64,000 nt of DNA, from NCBI GenBank assembly GCA_902523615.1, contig CABYZW010000003.1, positions 14,336-78,335 on the forward strand, given 5' to 3'. The position numbers were made by a program, and so were the translations under genes. The stretch comes from an uncultured Pelagibacteraceae bacterium. GTDB taxonomy: Bacteria; Pseudomonadota; Alphaproteobacteria; Pelagibacterales; Pelagibacteraceae. This document shows, piece after piece, positions 28,015 to 63,302 of this stretch. Positions within the stretch are counted from its first letter, which is position 1, and each line of letters starts with the position of its first letter. The notes beneath the pieces were generated by a model. That model saw only the letters and a program-made list of their open reading frames with translations, did no database searches and was not told the origin of the DNA.

Positions 28015-28106
28015 GGAAGAGTGGGTGAGAGGCTGAAACCAGTCGTTTGCTAAATGACCGTGCGAGGAAACTTGTACCGAGGGTTCGAATCCCTCCTCTT
28101 CCGCCA
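28015..28106 (+). tRNA. tRNA-Ser(GCT)
   Basis: acceptor stem GGAAGAG/CTCTTCC, anticodon arm GTCGT-TTGCTAA-ATGAC, long variable arm, GTTCGAATC T-loop, encoded CCA. Confidence 0.97.
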
Positions 28107-51568: not shown

Positions 51569-52582
51569 ATGTATACATTAAATCAAAGAATTAATAATCA
51601 ATTATCAATCTGGTTAGTTGCTATGTTTTCAATTATATCGATTATGATAGTTGTAGGTGGTTTAACTAGACTAACTGACTCGGGTCTCTCAATTACAGAA
51701 TGGCAATTGTTTTCGGGTTTATTTCCACCTTTGAGTCAAAATGAATGGATTTACTATTTTAATCTCTATAAAAAAATTCCAGAATATCAACTCCAAAATT
51801 TTAATATGTCGTTAGAAGAATTTAAAATAATTTTTTGGTGGGAATGGGCACATCGTTTTCTAGGTAGATTAATTGGGATTAGTTTTCTAATTCCTCTAAT
51901 ATACTTTTCTTTTAAGATTAGTTTTTCTAAATTGATAAATTTTTATTTTATCTTTTTTCTTATTTGTTTTCAGGGTTTTATAGGATGGTATATGGTTAGC
52001 AGTGGTTTAATTGATAGAGTAGATGTTAGTCATTTTAGACTTTCGATTCATTTATTAGGAGCATTTATAATTTTATCCTTAATTTTGTGGTCCTATTTGA
52101 AAATAAATATAAATAAGAAAATTTTAAATAAAATAAATAATTTCATTCCATTATTGTTTTTGATACTAGTATTTACACAAATAATTATAGGTGCATTTGT
52201 ATCAGGTATGGATGCTGGTAAAATTTACAATTCTTGGCCACTAATGGGCAATAGTTATTTTCCTGATGACAATAATATTATAGATTTATTTAAGCTCTCT
52301 GCATTTAGTGATCCTTCATTGGTTCAATTTATACACAGAAATTTGGCATATTTTATTACATTTTTTTATTTGTTTATGATTTATAAGGTTTTTAAAAATA
52401 AAGTTTATGAATTATATAATTCAATAATTGTTTTAGGCTTATGTATAATCATACAAATAATTCTTGGAATTTATACTGTTTTACATGGTGCACATATATA
52501 TGTTGCAGCCATGCATCAATTTAGTTCGATTTTTTTAGTAACCTTTTCTATTTATTTTTTTTATTTGAACAAACAAAATTAA
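51569..52582 (+). CDS. ctaA: heme A synthase COX15/CtaA
   Basis: GGLTRLTDSGLSITEW, WEWAHRFLGR, GWYMVSSG, QFIHR, HQ. Confidence 0.96.
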   Translation: MYTLNQRINNQLSIWLVAMFSIISIMIVVGGLTRLTDSGLSITEWQLFSGLFPPLSQNEWIYYFNLYKKIPEYQLQNFNMSLEEFKIIFWWEWAHRFLGRLIGISFLIPLIYFSFKISFSKLINFYFIFFLICFQGFIGWYMVSSGLIDRVDVSHFRLSIHLLGAFIILSLILWSYLKININKKILNKINNFIPLLFLILVFTQIIIGAFVSGMDAGKIYNSWPLMGNSYFPDDNNIIDLFKLSAFSDPSLVQFIHRNLAYFITFFYLFMIYKVFKNKVYELYNSIIVLGLCIIIQIILGIYTVLHGAHIYVAAMHQFSSIFLVTFSIYFFYLNKQN

Positions 52583-53907
52583 CTTACAGCTTTTAATTTA
52601 CCTTTTGATGATTTATTTAAGGCTTGATTTAAATCTTCAATAATATCATCAATATGTTCAATACCTATGCAAAGTCTCACATAGCCTTGAGTAACGCCGC
52701 TCGCAGCTAGTTGTTCTTTATTTAATTGACTGTGTGTGGTGCTAGCAGGGTGAGTTGCTAAACTTCTTGCATCTCCAATATTAGCTACATGATAAAACAT
52801 TTTCAAAGACTCAATAAATCTTTTTCCAGCCTCAATTCCACCTTTGAGTTCAATTCCTACCATAGCACCATTTCCTCCACTCAGATATTGTTTTGCTCTA
52901 TCTGATATTTTTTTTTCATGTTTTGTTGAATAAATTACTTTTGAAACATCTTTATGATTTGATAAAAAATCAACAACTTTACTAGCGTTTTCACAGTGTT
53001 GTTTCATTCTTAAAGCACAAGTTTCTAAACCTTGTATGATTGAAAAAGCATTGTCAGGTGCTAATGATGATCCTAGATCTCTCAATAAGCAGACCCTAGC
53101 TCTAATTGCAAATGGAATATTGGCTCCAGTCAACTCTGGCACTGCTTTACCCCATATTACATCTCCATAACTTGGATCTGGTTCATTAAATAAAGGCTGC
53201 CTTTTTGGATCTGCAGTCCAGTCAAAATTTCCTCCATCTACTATACTGCCCGCTACTACTGTTCCATGACCACCAATATATTTTGTAAGAGAATGGATCG
53301 TGACAGCCGCTCCATGATCAATTGGTTTACAGATCACTGGCGCAGCAGTATTATCCATTATTAAGGGTATATTATACTTCTTACCTATATTTGACACTTC
53401 TTTAATAGGAAAAACTCTTAAATATGGATTTGGTAAAGTTTCTCCATAAAAAGCTCGAGTTTTATCATCAACAAGTTTTTCAAAATTTTTAGGGTCAATT
53501 GGATCAGCATATCTAATTTCAATACCTAATTTACTTAAAGTATTAGTAAAAAGAGATACAGTTCCCCCATACAAATCTGTTGAACTTATTATATTATCTC
53601 CTGCTTGAGCTACATTTAATACAGCAAATGTTGACGCTGTTTGACCTGATGAGACTGTAAGACACGCTAAACCACCCTCTAATTCAGCTAATCTTTTTTC
53701 TAAAACATCATTAGTGGGATTCATTATTCTAGTATAAATATTACCAAACTCTTCTAGTTTAAATAATTTTGCCGCGTGTTCCGTGTTATCAAACTGATAT
53801 GCAGTTGTTCTGTATATAGGAACTGTTACAGCGTTGGTGGCTGAATCTTTTCTATATTCTCCACCATGCAAACCTATAGTTTCAGGGTTATTTCTCTTTT
53901 TTTTCAT
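52579..53907 (-). CDS. metY: O-acetylhomoserine sulfhydrylase
   Basis: GNIYTRIMNPT, LYGGT, HSLTKYIGGHG PLP motif, HVANIGDARSL.HPASTTHSQL. Confidence 0.95.
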   Translation of the reverse strand: MKKKRNNPETIGLHGGEYRKDSATNAVTVPIYRTTAYQFDNTEHAAKLFKLEEFGNIYTRIMNPTNDVLEKRLAELEGGLACLTVSSGQTASTFAVLNVAQAGDNIISSTDLYGGTVSLFTNTLSKLGIEIRYADPIDPKNFEKLVDDKTRAFYGETLPNPYLRVFPIKEVSNIGKKYNIPLIMDNTAAPVICKPIDHGAAVTIHSLTKYIGGHGTVVAGSIVDGGNFDWTADPKRQPLFNEPDPSYGDVIWGKAVPELTGANIPFAIRARVCLLRDLGSSLAPDNAFSIIQGLETCALRMKQHCENASKVVDFLSNHKDVSKVIYSTKHEKKISDRAKQYLSGGNGAMVGIELKGGIEAGKRFIESLKMFYHVANIGDARSLATHPASTTHSQLNKEQLAASGVTQGYVRLCIGIEHIDDIIEDLNQALNKSSKGKLKAVS

Positions 53908-53912
53908 TTTAA

Positions 53913-53965
53913 TCCTTTTTAGTACTTTAGCTTATGCTAGGCGCACAATATAGTTCAAATGCCTA
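53913..53965 (-). ncRNA. SAM-V riboswitch aptamer in the metY 5' UTR
   Basis: minus strand reads UAGGCAUUUGAACUAUAUUGUGCGCCUAGCAUAAGCUAAAGUACUAAAAAGGA; P1 UAGGC/GCCUA; the 3' pseudoknot strand overlaps the AAGGA Shine-Dalgarno. Confidence 0.9.
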
Positions 53966-53983
53966 CCGAATTTGGGTGAAATT

Positions 53984-57662: not shown

Positions 57663-57737
57663 GGTCCCTTCGTCTATCGGTTAGGACACGTGGTTTTCAT
57701 CCTCGAAAGAGGGGTTCGATTCCCCTAGGGACCGCCA
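57663..57737 (+). tRNA. tRNA-Glu(TTC)
   Basis: acceptor GGTCCCT/AGGGACC, anticodon loop TTTTCAT, T-arm AGGGG-TTCGATT-CCCCT, encoded CCA. Confidence 0.96.
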
Positions 57738-57748
57738 TAATCCATAAT

Positions 57749-58036
57749 ATGACTTTTTATGTTTACATGCTTCAATCACTAAATAAGAAGATTCCAAAAA
57801 CATATGTTGGTTATACAAATGATTTATTCAATAGACTTAAAAAACATAATTCAAGCAAAGGTGCTAAATCTACAAGAGGCTATAAATGGTCTATAATTTA
57901 CAAAAAGAGATTTTTTTCAAAAAAAAGCGCAATGTCTTATGAATATAAACTTAAAAATGATAGAAAGAAACGATTATCTATAATAAAAAAAAAAAATGAT
58001 AAAAAAATCAAAAATAGCAACAATACTTCCCTATAA
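57749..58036 (+). CDS. stand-alone GIY-YIG nuclease (UPF0213/YhbQ-like)
   Basis: FYVYML..TYVGYT..RL..HN...GAK.TR..A...E..LK. Confidence 0.9.
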   Translation: MTFYVYMLQSLNKKIPKTYVGYTNDLFNRLKKHNSSKGAKSTRGYKWSIIYKKRFFSKKSAMSYEYKLKNDRKKRLSIIKKKNDKKIKNSNNTSL

Positions 58037-60113
58037 AGAAAATTATACATACAAAAAAGCTCTTGCCGCTGCAATATGGGTAAATGACTTCCATAAATTT
58101 TCTAATTATAGAAATAATAATTATATTTTTGGAAATACGGACTCAAAAGATTATCTTACAGGAAATTATATAAATGTTCCTTTAAAAAAAAAAAAATCAA
58201 AGTTTGCAAGTACAACTAATGAATACTGTGATAATTTTATAAAGATTAGTTACAAGTATAATTTTGATATAATTGAAATTCATAATAGACCTCTTGTTTT
58301 TATTTACCTCAAAAAAAATATAAATAAAAAATTTATCTTATATTTCCATAATGATCCCTTAACCATGAAAGGATCAAAAACAATTTCTGAGAGATTATAT
58401 CTAATAAATAATGTAGATAAAATTATTTTTGTAAGTAAATGGGTACAAAATAGATTTTTTATTGGAATAGATCAAAAATTAATTGATAAAACTAATGTAG
58501 TTTATCCAAGTATAAACAAAGAAAATAGGATTATTAAGAAAAATAAAAATATTATTTTTGTTGGAAAATTAAATGAGTCTAAAGGATATGATATTTATAA
58601 AGAGGCAATAATTAAAATTTTAAACGAATTTAAAGAATGGAAAGCCTATTCTATAGGTGATGAAGACAGAAAAAGACCATACATAAATCATCCTCATCAC
58701 AAAGAATTAGGTTTTATGAAACATAAAAAAGTTCTACAATATTTAAATAAATCTGAAATTGCTGTAGTTCCATCAAGATGGGAAGAACCATTTGGTAGGA
58801 CTGCCTTAGAATCTTCATCAAGAGCATGTGCAACTATAATTTCAAATAGAGGAGGCTTACCAGAAACAACAGATCATGCAATTATTCTAAAAAAACTCTC
58901 AAGTAATGAATTATATTTAGAGATAAAAAAACTTATCAAAAATGATATTTTAAGAAAAAAAATTCAACTTAACGGTTTTAAAAATGTTAAACATCAAACA
59001 ATTAACAACTCAAAAATAATTGATGATATCAGAGATAAATTAATACATAATTTTAATTTAAATTATATCAGAAACAAATTAAGAATTATAAATATCTACA
59101 ATGCTGGACAAAAACTCAATCATAGGCTGTATAATATATCAATTGGAAAAAAATTTACTAACGGACTTATAAGAAATGGTCATGATGTTTTAGAAATTAG
59201 TGACCGCGATTTTATTAAACAATCAAGGTCGCTTTCATTTAAAAATACTAACGAAAGATTTCAAGAATATTTAACTGAAACATTTAAAAACTATAATCCA
59301 GATTTATTTTTGTTTGGCCATACTAGAAATATCGAAATTGATACTATTAAAACAATTAAAAATTTTAATAAGAATATAATTATATCACAGTGGAATGAAG
59401 ACCCGGTTATGCCTAGTCTCGGCTATTCTAAAAAAAACATCAATAATATAGCTATTTATAGTGATATAGTTGATCATAACTTTATAACCACCGATCCAAG
59501 TATCATATCAAAACAAAATTTAAAAATCAAAAATTTACATTTCTTTTTTGTGCCAGTTGATAAAAATATTGAGTGCTATGACGTTTTCAAATTAAATCCA
59601 ACTATGGATCTTTTTTATGCAATGAGTCATGGAGTAAATAGAGCAACTCTTAAAAAAGGTAAAACTGATGAAAGAATTAATTTTTTAGACAAATTAATTA
59701 ATAAATTAGATAATATAAATTGCGATTTTTATGGTTTTAAAAATAAAGAGCCCATTTGGGGAAATCAATTCTATCAATCTTTAGTCAATTCAAAAATGGG
59801 TTTAAATTTAAGTAGGGGACTGCCAACAAAATATTATTCAAGTAACAGGATTGCATCCTTAATGGGTAACGGATTATTAACATTTATAGATAAAAAAACA
59901 CAAATAAATGATTTTTTTAATCAAAATGAAATTGTTTTGTACGAAAACATTAATGATTTGGCTCAAAAAGTAAAATTTTATAAAAAAAATATTAAACAAA
60001 GAAAGAAAATAGCCTGCCTAGGAAAAAAGAAATATTTTAAACTTTTTAATGAGTTACGAACTACTAAATATATTATTGATAAATCACTTGGTAAATCTGT
60101 TCAATTATATTGA
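57996..60113 (+). CDS. two-domain glycosyltransferase (GT4 plus CgeB/Glyco_trans_1_2-like)
   Basis: VVPSRWEEPFGRTALE..SNRGGLPE (GT4); second GT-B module with SKMGLNLSR..YSSNRI..MGNG. Confidence 0.85.
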   Translation: MIKKSKIATILPYKENYTYKKALAAAIWVNDFHKFSNYRNNNYIFGNTDSKDYLTGNYINVPLKKKKSKFASTTNEYCDNFIKISYKYNFDIIEIHNRPLVFIYLKKNINKKFILYFHNDPLTMKGSKTISERLYLINNVDKIIFVSKWVQNRFFIGIDQKLIDKTNVVYPSINKENRIIKKNKNIIFVGKLNESKGYDIYKEAIIKILNEFKEWKAYSIGDEDRKRPYINHPHHKELGFMKHKKVLQYLNKSEIAVVPSRWEEPFGRTALESSSRACATIISNRGGLPETTDHAIILKKLSSNELYLEIKKLIKNDILRKKIQLNGFKNVKHQTINNSKIIDDIRDKLIHNFNLNYIRNKLRIINIYNAGQKLNHRLYNISIGKKFTNGLIRNGHDVLEISDRDFIKQSRSLSFKNTNERFQEYLTETFKNYNPDLFLFGHTRNIEIDTIKTIKNFNKNIIISQWNEDPVMPSLGYSKKNINNIAIYSDIVDHNFITTDPSIISKQNLKIKNLHFFFVPVDKNIECYDVFKLNPTMDLFYAMSHGVNRATLKKGKTDERINFLDKLINKLDNINCDFYGFKNKEPIWGNQFYQSLVNSKMGLNLSRGLPTKYYSSNRIASLMGNGLLTFIDKKTQINDFFNQNEIVLYENINDLAQKVKFYKKNIKQRKKIACLGKKKYFKLFNELRTTKYIIDKSLGKSVQLY

Positions 60114-60964: not shown

Positions 60965-61869
60965 ATAATCTTATAGTAAGAATAGCAGAGGGTTTAGGTA
61001 ACCAACTTTTTATGTACGCAAACGCTTTTGCTTTATCCCAAAAAATTAATTATAAATTATTTATCGATGACGAAAGTGCTTATTTTAAAAAAAAGAACAT
61101 AGAAAAATATCAACTACATAATTTTAATTTATCGTCAAATATATGTGAAGATAAATTTAAATTTAATAACTATATAAAGGACTTTAAAAGAAAGTTTTTA
61201 ATAAAATCAAATTTTTTAAAACGAAAAAAAAATTTTCTAATAGAAGAGAATGATAAATTTAAAAAAACAAAATATTCAAACCTTTCAAATAATTCTTTTT
61301 CTAAAGTTTTATTTGTTGAAGGCCATTATGAGTCAGAAAAATATTTTAAAAATTATAAAAATCAGCTTAAATTAGAGTTTACTCTAAAAAATTCAAATTT
61401 TTATGAGAAAAATAAATATATTGAATTAATAAGAAATAATCCAAATATTGTATCTATTTGCGTAAGACAAAATAGATTTTCGGAAAGAATGAATAATAAA
61501 TTTAATGAAAATAATATTATTGCCTCACAAAATTTTACCAAAAAAACAATCGAGTATATATTTCGAGCAGTTACTTATATTGACAATAAGTTTGATGATA
61601 TGAAATATTTAGTGTGGAGCAACGATTTTAAAGATTTAAGAAATTATTTACCTGAAAATAAATTTATTTTTATTGAAAATAAGGAAAATAAATCACTTAG
61701 CGATTTTTATTTACTACTTAATTGTAAAAATTTTATTGTTGGACCAACATCGTTTCATTGGTGGCCCGCATGGCTTAATTCTAACCAAAACTCTTTAATT
61801 TTAAGACCTAAAGATTTAAATGTCTCTAATAATCTTGATTTTTGGCCCAGTAATTGGATTTCAATTTAA
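60961..61869 (+). CDS. GT11 (alpha-1,2-fucosyltransferase-like) glycosyltransferase
   Basis: EGLGNQLFMYA, EGHYESEKYF, DF.LL..C.NFI..TSFHWWPAWL, P..WI.I. Confidence 0.85.
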   Translation: MNNLIVRIAEGLGNQLFMYANAFALSQKINYKLFIDDESAYFKKKNIEKYQLHNFNLSSNICEDKFKFNNYIKDFKRKFLIKSNFLKRKKNFLIEENDKFKKTKYSNLSNNSFSKVLFVEGHYESEKYFKNYKNQLKLEFTLKNSNFYEKNKYIELIRNNPNIVSICVRQNRFSERMNNKFNENNIIASQNFTKKTIEYIFRAVTYIDNKFDDMKYLVWSNDFKDLRNYLPENKFIFIENKENKSLSDFYLLLNCKNFIVGPTSFHWWPAWLNSNQNSLILRPKDLNVSNNLDFWPSNWISI

Positions 61870-62771
61870 AATTTGATCTTATTAAGAGCATTATTTTTAA
61901 ATAGATTTGCTTCATGTATATATCTTCTTACCATTTGAGTAGTTTTATGACCTGTCATTGCCATGATATTCCGTTCTGCCGCTCCAAACTCAGCAGCTGT
62001 AGTAGCAAAACCCGATCTCAAACTGTGTCCCGCATATCTTGATGAGTCTAAACCTGCTTTATTTGTATATTTTTTAATAATTAGAGCTACTGATTTATCT
62101 GAAATATTAAAAATTTTTCCTTTATTTGAGTTTGTTAATTTAGAATTCATATAATTTTTGATTGCCAATACAGGACAAAATTCCTGATTTTCAAAGTAGG
62201 GTATTGCTTTTACAATTCCTTCGCCCGCTTGATCAGTTTTTGATCTCTTAATTAAAATTTTTACACCTTCACCTACAAATTCAATATCATCATAACATAT
62301 ATTAACCAGTTCAGATCGTCTAAAACCTCCAGCAAAACCAATTAAAATTAAAGCTTTATCTCGAATTTTTTCTTTGTCTATTGCTTTAATAATTAATTTT
62401 AAATCATTGATTAATATAGGTTTTTTTGCTTTTTGTCTTGAACCCAAGCTCCTTTTAATCCCATGCAAATTTTCCATTATAATTGGATGTTTAGTATCAA
62501 GATAATGGCCTCTTAACTTATGAATCACGCTTATAGAGGCTATTCTTCGTTTTAAAGTACTAAATTTTGATGTTTTTGAGAGGTTAGTAATGTATAGAGC
62601 AATAATTTTTGGTTCTGTTGGTATTGAGGAAAAACCATTTTTTGCACAGAAACTTGAAAAATCTTTAAAATCTGATTGATAAGCTCTCAGTGTATTGCTA
62701 GCTTTGGAGTTCTTTAAATTTTTTAAAGTTTCAATTTCTAAGCTTTTAACATCTGTTATTAGTTCATTCAT
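61866..62771 (-). CDS. Cre/Xer-like tyrosine site-specific recombinase
   Basis: N-terminal core-binding domain (SNTLRAYQSDF..STLKRRIASI..HK); full catalytic set R (GFRRSEL), K (RSKTDQ), HxxR (HSLRSG), H (TGHKT), Y (VRRY). Confidence 0.94.
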   Translation of the reverse strand: MNELITDVKSLEIETLKNLKNSKASNTLRAYQSDFKDFSSFCAKNGFSSIPTEPKIIALYITNLSKTSKFSTLKRRIASISVIHKLRGHYLDTKHPIIMENLHGIKRSLGSRQKAKKPILINDLKLIIKAIDKEKIRDKALILIGFAGGFRRSELVNICYDDIEFVGEGVKILIKRSKTDQAGEGIVKAIPYFENQEFCPVLAIKNYMNSKLTNSNKGKIFNISDKSVALIIKKYTNKAGLDSSRYAGHSLRSGFATTAAEFGAAERNIMAMTGHKTTQMVRRYIHEANLFKNNALNKIKF

Positions 62772-62775
62772 ATTT

Positions 62776-62804
62776 ATTTCCGATAACCATTAATTATCGG
62801 AAAT
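62776..62804. repeat. perfect 11-7-11 inverted repeat, candidate lox/dif-like recombination site
   Basis: ATTTCCGATAA (62776-62786), CCATTAA spacer, TTATCGGAAAT (62794-62804); 4 bp upstream of the recombinase ATG. Confidence 0.8.
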
Positions 62805-62831
62805 TATATAATAGGTGATTTTTAATGTCAA
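62803..62831 (-). promoter_or_regulatory. consensus sigma70 promoter of the recombinase gene
   Basis: minus strand TTGACA (62831-62826), 17-bp spacer, TATAAT (62808-62803); predicted +1 near 62796 lies inside the palindrome. Confidence 0.8.
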
Positions 62832-63112: not shown

Positions 63113-63120
63113 AATATTAA

Positions 63121-63302
63121 TTAAGGGGCAACTCTTAACTGGCCGATTGGAGAAAAGCCGAGAGGTACAATTCCAAGGGGCAGAAAGCTCTACAAAGCAT
63201 CGCTGAACATGTAGAGCGGGTGACGTGGCGGTAGCTGATCAACGACGCGTCAAAACAACTGTTCTTTGCACCCATAAAAGTGCAAGGAAACAGTGGTTTT
63301 TT
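63121..63302 (+). ncRNA. ~180-nt structured non-coding RNA upstream of MGMT (candidate abundant SAR11 sRNA, IMES-2-like)
   Basis: GC-enriched patch with five stems, two GNRA tetraloops (GCAA, GAGA), a possible loop-loop pseudoknot and a terminal hairpin with U tract. Confidence 0.75.
63252..63302 (+). terminator. intrinsic terminator-like hairpin ending the RNA
   Basis: ACTGTT-CTTTGCAC / GTGCAAGG-A-AACAGT stem followed by GG-TTTTTT. Confidence 0.6.

Follow-up and report, generated by a model that had tools for sequence, protein, structure and literature searches.

A single Cre-like tyrosine recombinase and its adjoining palindrome as the probable chromosome dimer resolution module of Pelagibacteraceae

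Introduction

Whether a single recombinase acting at a single site has taken over the role of XerC, XerD and dif in SAR11 bacteria is the question raised by a locus of an uncultured Pelagibacteraceae bacterium, where a tyrosine recombinase gene is directly preceded by a perfect palindrome. Pelagibacter ubique is listed as lacking dif/Xer in a genome survey (PMC2731167), and the same survey reports no evidence that species lacking dif/Xer use loxP/Cre-like substitutes. The Legionellales were also once listed without dif/Xer and were later shown to have the single-enzyme XerL/dif system, the site of which is perfectly symmetric and is exploited by a mobile element (PMC9765430). Pelagibacter is not mentioned in the supplements of Kono 2011, and the literature searched (subscription papers and preprint supplements lying outside it) holds no description of a SAR11 recombinase/site system, nor of copies of such a site in pelagiphages. 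The stretch of DNA analysed here, referred to as the window, is 64,000 nucleotides long, and its features are given in window coordinates.

Results

The recombinase and its relatives

The recombinase gene (61866-62771, minus strand) is an open reading frame of 301 residues with a complete catalytic set (R151, K178, H249, R252, H275 and Y284). The protein matches Pfam Phage_integrase at E 1e-19 and has the R-K-H-R-H/W-Y residues and the lambda-integrase fold of the tyrosine recombinases in a confident predicted structure (pLDDT 96). Both the intact enzyme and the 11-7-11 palindrome 4 bp upstream of it are found as the preliminary description had claimed. When the predicted model is compared with known structures, the best match is Cre (1kbu; Z 23.5, rmsd 2.8 Å, 280 residues aligned), followed by XerA (Z 19.3) and XerH (Z 18.9); the top ranks of a Foldseek search with this model are all Cre, and the Cre fold is found over both domains.

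By sequence, the enzyme misses the family cut-offs of XerC and XerD (73 of 330 and 64 of 335 bits) and of XerS (59 bits, cut-off 267), and the XerA cut-off also lies far above its score. Profile scores are 218-287 bits for TnpS, 122 for Cre and 60-73 for XerC/XerD, and the identity with the SAR11 recombinase is 26-30% for TnpS and 21% for Cre. The nearest sequences are uncharacterised plasmid recombinases (33-44% identity) and metagenomic proteins (up to 50%), and the closest relatives sit on plasmids and viral contigs. In a quick tree, the SAR11 genes form one clade (support 99) within a plasmid recombinase group, separate from XerC/XerD, including those of the sister family, and Cre is on a long branch, which leaves its own placement unsure. 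The enzyme, initially designated Cre/Xer-like, is Cre-like in its predicted fold, but it is not Xer-like by descent and is not a close relative of Cre. The sites of the plasmid-type relatives have the same core, with centres of 6-8 bp. The plasmid setting of the relatives, the position of the clade inside the plasmid group and the similarity of the sites together suggest that the SAR11 recombinase is likely to descend from a plasmid-type resolvase.

An origin as phage integrase or prophage remnant was also considered and rejected: IMG/VR gave seven loci, at 27-34% over short stretches, with no close relative, and 50,697 phage records gave just seven weak matches. A shortened, 189-residue member of the SAR11 recombinase clade is encoded on a Coxiella plasmid (L452:1720-2289); it is distinct from the 417-residue recombinase of the same plasmid, which was chosen by its size as a proxy for XerL and bears no resemblance in sequence to the SAR11 enzyme (E 0.86; 7 bits). 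Contigs assembled from RNA runs span the recombinase gene in two of four runs, and such contigs cannot show expression.

The palindromic site and its surroundings

The palindrome (62776-62804), ATTTCCGATAA-CCATTAA-TTATCGGAAAT, ends 4 bp ahead of the recombinase ATG and is the predicted recombination site, equivalent to dif, as well as a predicted operator. Its conserved parts are TTCCGATAA (62778-62786), the spacer (62787-62793) and TTATCGGAA (62794-62802). It had been described as present in one copy, and it is indeed the only occurrence of CCGATAA-N5-9-TTATCGG in the whole 796-kb assembly, which is 67% complete. Perfect repeats as such are not rare in AT-rich DNA, with 31 in this assembly when considering arms of at least 10 bp and spacers of 5-9 bp; the palindrome surpasses chance because of its placement at the gene, as shuffling the 100-bp upstream region 20,000 times yielded a perfect repeat of at least 11 bp only 14 times and the core recurs at nearly all orthologous loci, as described below. 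A sigma-70 promoter facing the gene (TTGACA-17-TATAAT, 62803-62831, minus strand) matches the consensus at 12 of 12 positions, and its -10 element shares 2 bp with the outer edge of the site, so that bound enzyme would cover the predicted transcription start.

The neighbours of the window recombinase are glycosyltransferases, an O6-methylguanine methyltransferase-like gene and transporters. The flanking genes vary among the loci of the family, and transposase, replication and conjugation genes are absent from the recurrent neighbours. An IMES-2 structured RNA (63114-63253, plus strand) lies 310 bp from the site and is very deep in one RNA run; it is not regarded as part of the module because it is near the module in only two of 60 related loci. 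The window also contains a SAM-V riboswitch (53909-53973, minus strand) upstream of an open reading frame of 442 residues (52579-53907), and two tRNA genes on the plus strand (28015-28103 and 57663-57734), the latter preceding a GIY-YIG nuclease reading frame and three glycosyltransferase genes that reach the recombinase.

Conservation in the family

The recombinase is found in 243 of 301 Pelagibacteraceae genomes and in 115 of the 123 that are at least 90% complete, and the named relatives of the orthologue set are Pelagibacteraceae. Further counts refer to a set of 118 genomes, being 117 of at least 95% completeness and the source assembly (G000). Exactly one PF00589 match is present in 80 of these, more than one in 32 and none in six; the sole match is this recombinase in 78 genomes and another gene in two. 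The catalytic residues do not vary in any of 85 intact orthologue sequences, a set in which four genomes are counted twice, and five pairs give a dN/dS of about 0.05-0.09 (dN 0.06-0.09, dS 0.9-1.2), as for a gene under purifying selection.

The site core GATAATTWANNGTTATC occurs in 108 of the 118 genomes, and two further genomes have variant spacers. The expectation that the palindrome is conserved beside the orthologue is borne out for its core, which is found at 168 of 170 orthologous loci, with 98 different sequences in all, and the other two loci are cut by contig ends; this count required an upstream TTGAC, itself found in 168 of the 170, and some of the loci come from the same genomes. 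GATAATT and TTATC are invariant in the site-bearing loci, and two spacers, TTAATGG (140 loci) and TTAATTG (18), account for 158 of the 168 loci. Such a near-fixed spacer is as expected if sister sites must match. Single-copy status also holds beyond the source assembly, the core being found once in 105 of the 108 core-bearing genomes. In G103 the apparent second copy comes from two contig ends that overlap by 3.9 kb at 98.9% identity, and the additional matches in G219 and G058 differ in their spacers and are away from the gene.

Counting against dimer resolution as the function of the module, the recombinase is frameshifted in two complete assemblies (G205 and G255) and multiply broken in seven poorer ones. 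Nine multi-contig genomes, 94-99% complete, have neither the recombinase nor, where tested, matches at the level of XerC/XerD. The distribution counts are not independent, because the genomes are kin; the tallies include two genomes flagged as unpublished (G223 and G068), and no conclusion rests on either.

Two arm types and a covarying residue

When 20 further genomes were fetched, a second arm type was found, TTACTAAYGATAA...TTATCAATAGTAA around the same core. This type B has imperfect 13-bp arms and is found in most relatives, and in type A, the type of the window, the conserved stretch is only 9 bp per arm. The exact arms of the window occur in only 24 of the 118 genomes. A single enzyme, argued for earlier from identical arms, is therefore supported by the single gene and not by perfect symmetry of the arms, which is not general.

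The arm type covaries with residue 226, which is lysine in 43 of 43 type A and glutamine in 42 of 42 type B sequences of the 85-sequence set. Type A proteins are without a loop of about 12 residues ahead of the recognition helix that bears residue 226. K226 of the window recombinase aligns with R259 of Cre, a specificity residue that reads bases (PMC7438526). Both alleles are present in five genera, and the covariation within SAR11 amounts to one or two splits rather than independent events. Outside SAR11, all six relatives that have TCCGATAA arms carry lysine or arginine at position 226, and glutamine is found in a Sporosarcina plasmid enzyme the arms of which are type B-like. This covariation supports direct recognition of the site by the enzyme, as judged from the aligned sequences. 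Four type B genes (L039, L042, L145 and L146) begin about 17 codons earlier, giving a 334-residue form with an N-terminal extension.

XerC, XerD and the dif of the sister family

The proposed replacement of XerCD agrees with the genome data: none of the 118 genomes has a match to XerD at E<=1e-25 or to XerC at E<=1e-30 with profile models that both detect their controls. Pelagibacteraceae do not show the pair of paralogues and the 11-6-11 site with its TTATG XerD arm that mark XerC/XerD-dif, but rather one conserved recombinase without XerC/XerD. In the sister family, which is the second family of the order, XerD- or XerC-like matches are present in 27 of 27 genomes (E 1e-72 to 1e-97), most of which have both an XerC-like and an XerD-like protein, with scores just below the curated cut-off. 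No orthologue of the SAR11 recombinase was found in these 27 genomes, and the site core is in none of five.

A dif-like site of the form [CT]ATAA-TATATA-TTATG, more fully ATTCGYATAA-TATATA-TTATGTAAAA, is present in 18 of the 27 sister-family genomes. This tight pattern was derived from two of five regions fetched, the other three being wrong picks; a looser dif pattern gave no more matches than the control in five genomes. In seven of seven cases checked, the dif-like site adjoins a relative of the window glycosyltransferase at 57996-60113 (plus strand), a landmark outside the module, and in two cases it is also near a metG-tmk cluster, which follows the module in the window. Of 60 Pelagibacteraceae loci, 37 have a glycosyltransferase of the window type no more than 3 kb from the module. 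The module thus occupies the place of dif when considering this shared neighbourhood, and these comparisons make it likely that XerC, XerD and dif gave way to it at this very position of the terminus.

For 15 Arctic genomes, the automatic annotation given in a preprint (10.64898/2026.10.07.757358) lists XerC and XerD. JGI labels orthologues of the SAR11 recombinase XerD, which may explain these counts. Separately, a conserved CATAATATATAATATG lies a few kb from ftsK near the origin region in three genomes (G120:C1:328054, G173:C1:1321525 and G146:C1:1264854); it is dif-like at first sight, but its TTATG arm is changed and it is far from the terminus.

Position at the terminus

With mnmG, which we take as the origin marker by convention, the site is at 0.45-0.50 of the circle in 43 of 44 single-contig genomes (median 0.48), two of the 44 positions being estimated from the recombinase gene; dnaA is 53-81 kb from mnmG. 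In the window, the cumulative GC skew has its maximum, and with it the predicted terminus, at 61742 (position 76,077 of the 98-kb contig C3), about 1 kb from the site. The peak-to-site distance is 1.0 kb in this assembly; for G120 and G037, where stretches of 400 kb were analysed, it is 2.8 and 2.4 kb, respectively. The anticipated location at the skew switch opposite the origin is thereby supported, with G087 as the one exception: its site is 0.10 from mnmG, and the skew flips from positive to negative at the site. GC skew is lopsided along the contig of this genome (G087:C1), which has its origin genes just 140-190 kb away from the site and carries other integrase genes at 550 and 565 kb; it may be rearranged or mis-scaffolded.

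Of 88 copies of the motif GGGNAGGG, which we take to be the E. coli KOPS pattern, in five genomes, 78 are oriented towards the site; the strand switch of the motif brackets the site to an interval of 5.4 kb in G037 and of 8.6 kb in G120. In three genomes 52 of 57 copies point towards the site, versus 87 of 150 for the control GGGNBGGG among the matches listed (of 261; Fisher p 2e-6). A screen of octamers around the site gave mostly A-rich words and no new polar motif. The site is therefore a single-copy, non-coding palindrome at the terminus on which KOPS-like motifs converge. FtsK is present in 44 of 44 genomes, and its gamma domain and recA each in four of four complete genomes; that both are missing from the source assembly is consistent with the incompleteness of the latter.

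Copies of the site in phages

The site core is held by 34 viral contigs, 21 of which have it beside terminase genes, and no relative of the recombinase is present in the DNA fetched for these 21. Because the other 13 are without a nearby terminase and about a dozen are without an arm extension, the remaining viral core matches are treated as chance. One of the site-linked terminases is 85% identical to that of pelagiphage HTVC106P. When the spacer is left free and full flanks are considered, a terminase link is seen for 40 of 80 type A loci among the matches listed and for 27 of the 31 type B loci, and on many phage contigs A and B arms are in tandem. A recombinase relative is within 2.5 kb of the site in none of the 40 terminase-linked type A loci (on partial contigs), a further 11 type A loci encode a recombinase themselves, and no locus among the matches listed has both. 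The centre is 7 bp in 55 of 67 terminase-linked loci, being TTAATGG in none and TTAATTG in five, and it is 7 bp in 98 of 120 viral-database matches to type A arms, among the matches listed.

Among 11 cultured pelagiphages (six whole, five partial), a clear site lies upstream of terL in seven and a weak one in two, with centres of 6-8 bp; the site was not found in HTVC010P or in the integrase-bearing HTVC028P, nor in a stretch of an OM43 phage. Most phage spacers differ from the host spacers, no integrated phage copy was seen, and no credible joint at the site was seen in metagenome contigs. IMEX-like mobile elements, which exploit a host resolver, likewise bring a copy of its site and no recombinase gene, but there the copy is that of the host. 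We infer that these phages may use the host enzyme on their own DNA rather than to integrate. It is also conceivable that the phage sites serve binding alone, as a decoy or regulator. Outside this group, TTCCGATAA-N7-TTATCGGAA is also found in many GC-rich and gut-type viral contigs (within L302-L421), some beside their own recombinase; these are a large uncharacterised family of lox-like pairs.

Discussion

The gene and its palindrome most probably constitute the chromosome dimer resolution system of Pelagibacteraceae, run by a domesticated plasmid-type resolvase. This reading of the genomes is based on the core status, single copy and terminal position of the module and the mutual exclusion with XerC/XerD, together with the neighbourhood shared with the dif-like site of the sister family, the Cre-like predicted fold and the covariation of arms and residue 226. 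In the proposed mechanism, RecA crossovers would produce chromosome dimers, and FtsK, guided by GGGNAGGG motifs, would carry both sister sites to the septum. Two recombinase monomers would bind each site, and the resulting tetramer would cut the strands and exchange them by way of a Holliday junction, with a central overlap of about 7 bp, generating two monomeric chromosomes. As for Cre at dif in E. coli, FtsK would provide direction and simple synapsis, and it may not need to activate the enzyme directly. The enzyme on its site would also repress its own promoter and so keep its own level low.

It is possible to regard the site as an operator only, where the protein represses its own gene, or acts on an unseen site, and the palindrome is not recombined. 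The overlap with a perfect promoter and the predicted transcription start agrees with this view, an operator role by itself accounts for the arms and for the position at the gene, and the phage copies retain the arms with spacers that vary in sequence and in length (6-8 bp), as for binding without exchange. However, the host spacers are nearly fixed, the catalytic residues do not vary among the 85 intact sequences, a second site copy is absent from most genomes, and an operator gives no reason for staying at the skew and KOPS switch or at the dif spot of the sister family; this explanation is therefore improbable. Somewhat less probable still is a resolvase captured from a mobile element at the old dif, as a selfish gene or at an integration hot spot, with dimers handled otherwise or tolerated. 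The plasmid and viral setting of the closest relatives, the varying flanking genes, the broken genes of some assemblies and the scatter of the two alleles over five genera, which suggests exchange, would fit such a capture, but not the near-universal single copy under purifying selection, the recurrent neighbours without transposase, replication or conjugation genes, and the loss of xerC and xerD with FtsK-gamma and polar KOPS-like motifs kept. Least probable of all is that the main task is to unlink catenated sister chromosomes or to anchor the terminus at the septum, dimer resolution being secondary: this fits the position, FtsK and KOPS equally well, and XerCD-dif with FtsK can decatenate in E. 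coli (PMC2680272), but such a task is not exclusive of dimer resolution, and with recA present dimers should form.

Dimer resolution by the SAR11 module can be compared with several known systems. Cre/loxP of phage P1 likewise has one enzyme and a near-symmetric site beside its gene, and a common SAR11 left arm, ATAACTTCCGATA, is identical to the loxP arm except at two positions. Cre has 343 residues versus 301-334 in the SAR11 enzyme, its W315 is a histidine there, and the SAR11 site has 7 bp between the inner arm ends and conserved arms of 9-13 bp, unlike the 13-8-13 arrangement of Cre-type sites; the SAR11 gene is a chromosomal core gene at the terminus, whereas Cre is a phage gene. Cre-loxP can stand in for XerCD-dif in E. 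coli and then needs FtsK translocation (PMC2680272). The nearest named protein is TnpS of Tn4651-type transposons (TnXax1 and a Pseudomonas plasmid copy), where the palindromes between tnpT and tnpS share GATAA-N6/7-TTATC with the SAR11 site; the two proteins are taken as TnpS from their place between a divergent partner and, for TnXax1, a transposase. The divergent tnpT helper and Tn3-family transposase of these elements are not beside the SAR11 gene, and TnpS resolves cointegrates, whereas the SAR11 enzyme would resolve chromosomes.

As the preliminary description had stated for streptococci, the site of the XerS/difSL system of streptococci and lactococci is also directly upstream of a single recombinase; it lies at the skew switch (PMC1914069), and the difSL left arm TTTCCGAAAA (PMC5357621) matches TTTCCGATAA at nine of ten positions; XerS differs in its 356 residues and its 11-bp central region. 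XerH, of XerH/difH, ranks below Cre as a structural match. In Legionella, the xerL gene and its site are more than 400 kb apart (PMC9765430), whereas the SAR11 site adjoins its gene. The statement that SloxP has the same core is accurate: SloxM1 has a TCCGATAA...TTATCGGA core (PMC3082901), with 6 bp between GATAA and TTATC versus 7 here. The SCre/SloxP and VCre/VloxP systems are plasmid-borne, and SCre and VCre are not named among the 60 matches listed of 1,143 plasmid matches to Cre.

A wider scenario may be put forward tentatively, at somewhat less than even chances. SAR11 would have swapped XerCD-dif in place for a domesticated Cre-type plasmid resolvase, a natural counterpart of the engineered dif::loxP strain, with two specificity alleles moving between genera. 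Abundant pelagiphages without integrase would have sites for the two alleles in tandem at the packaging region, and whichever host enzyme they encounter would circularise or monomerise phage DNA in a P1-like cycle, with spacers mostly changed against integration.

The module answers the open dif/Xer question with a testable gene-site pair in the most abundant marine bacteria. If true, it would mean that single-enzyme dimer resolution arose independently once more, from the Cre/TnpS side, with the site as an exact terminus marker for SAR11 genomes and the two alleles as a natural specificity switch. A small recombinase with a longer overlap could be a candidate orthogonal tool, and the phage copies point to a dependency on the host that has gone unrecognised in the so-called strictly lytic pelagiphages.
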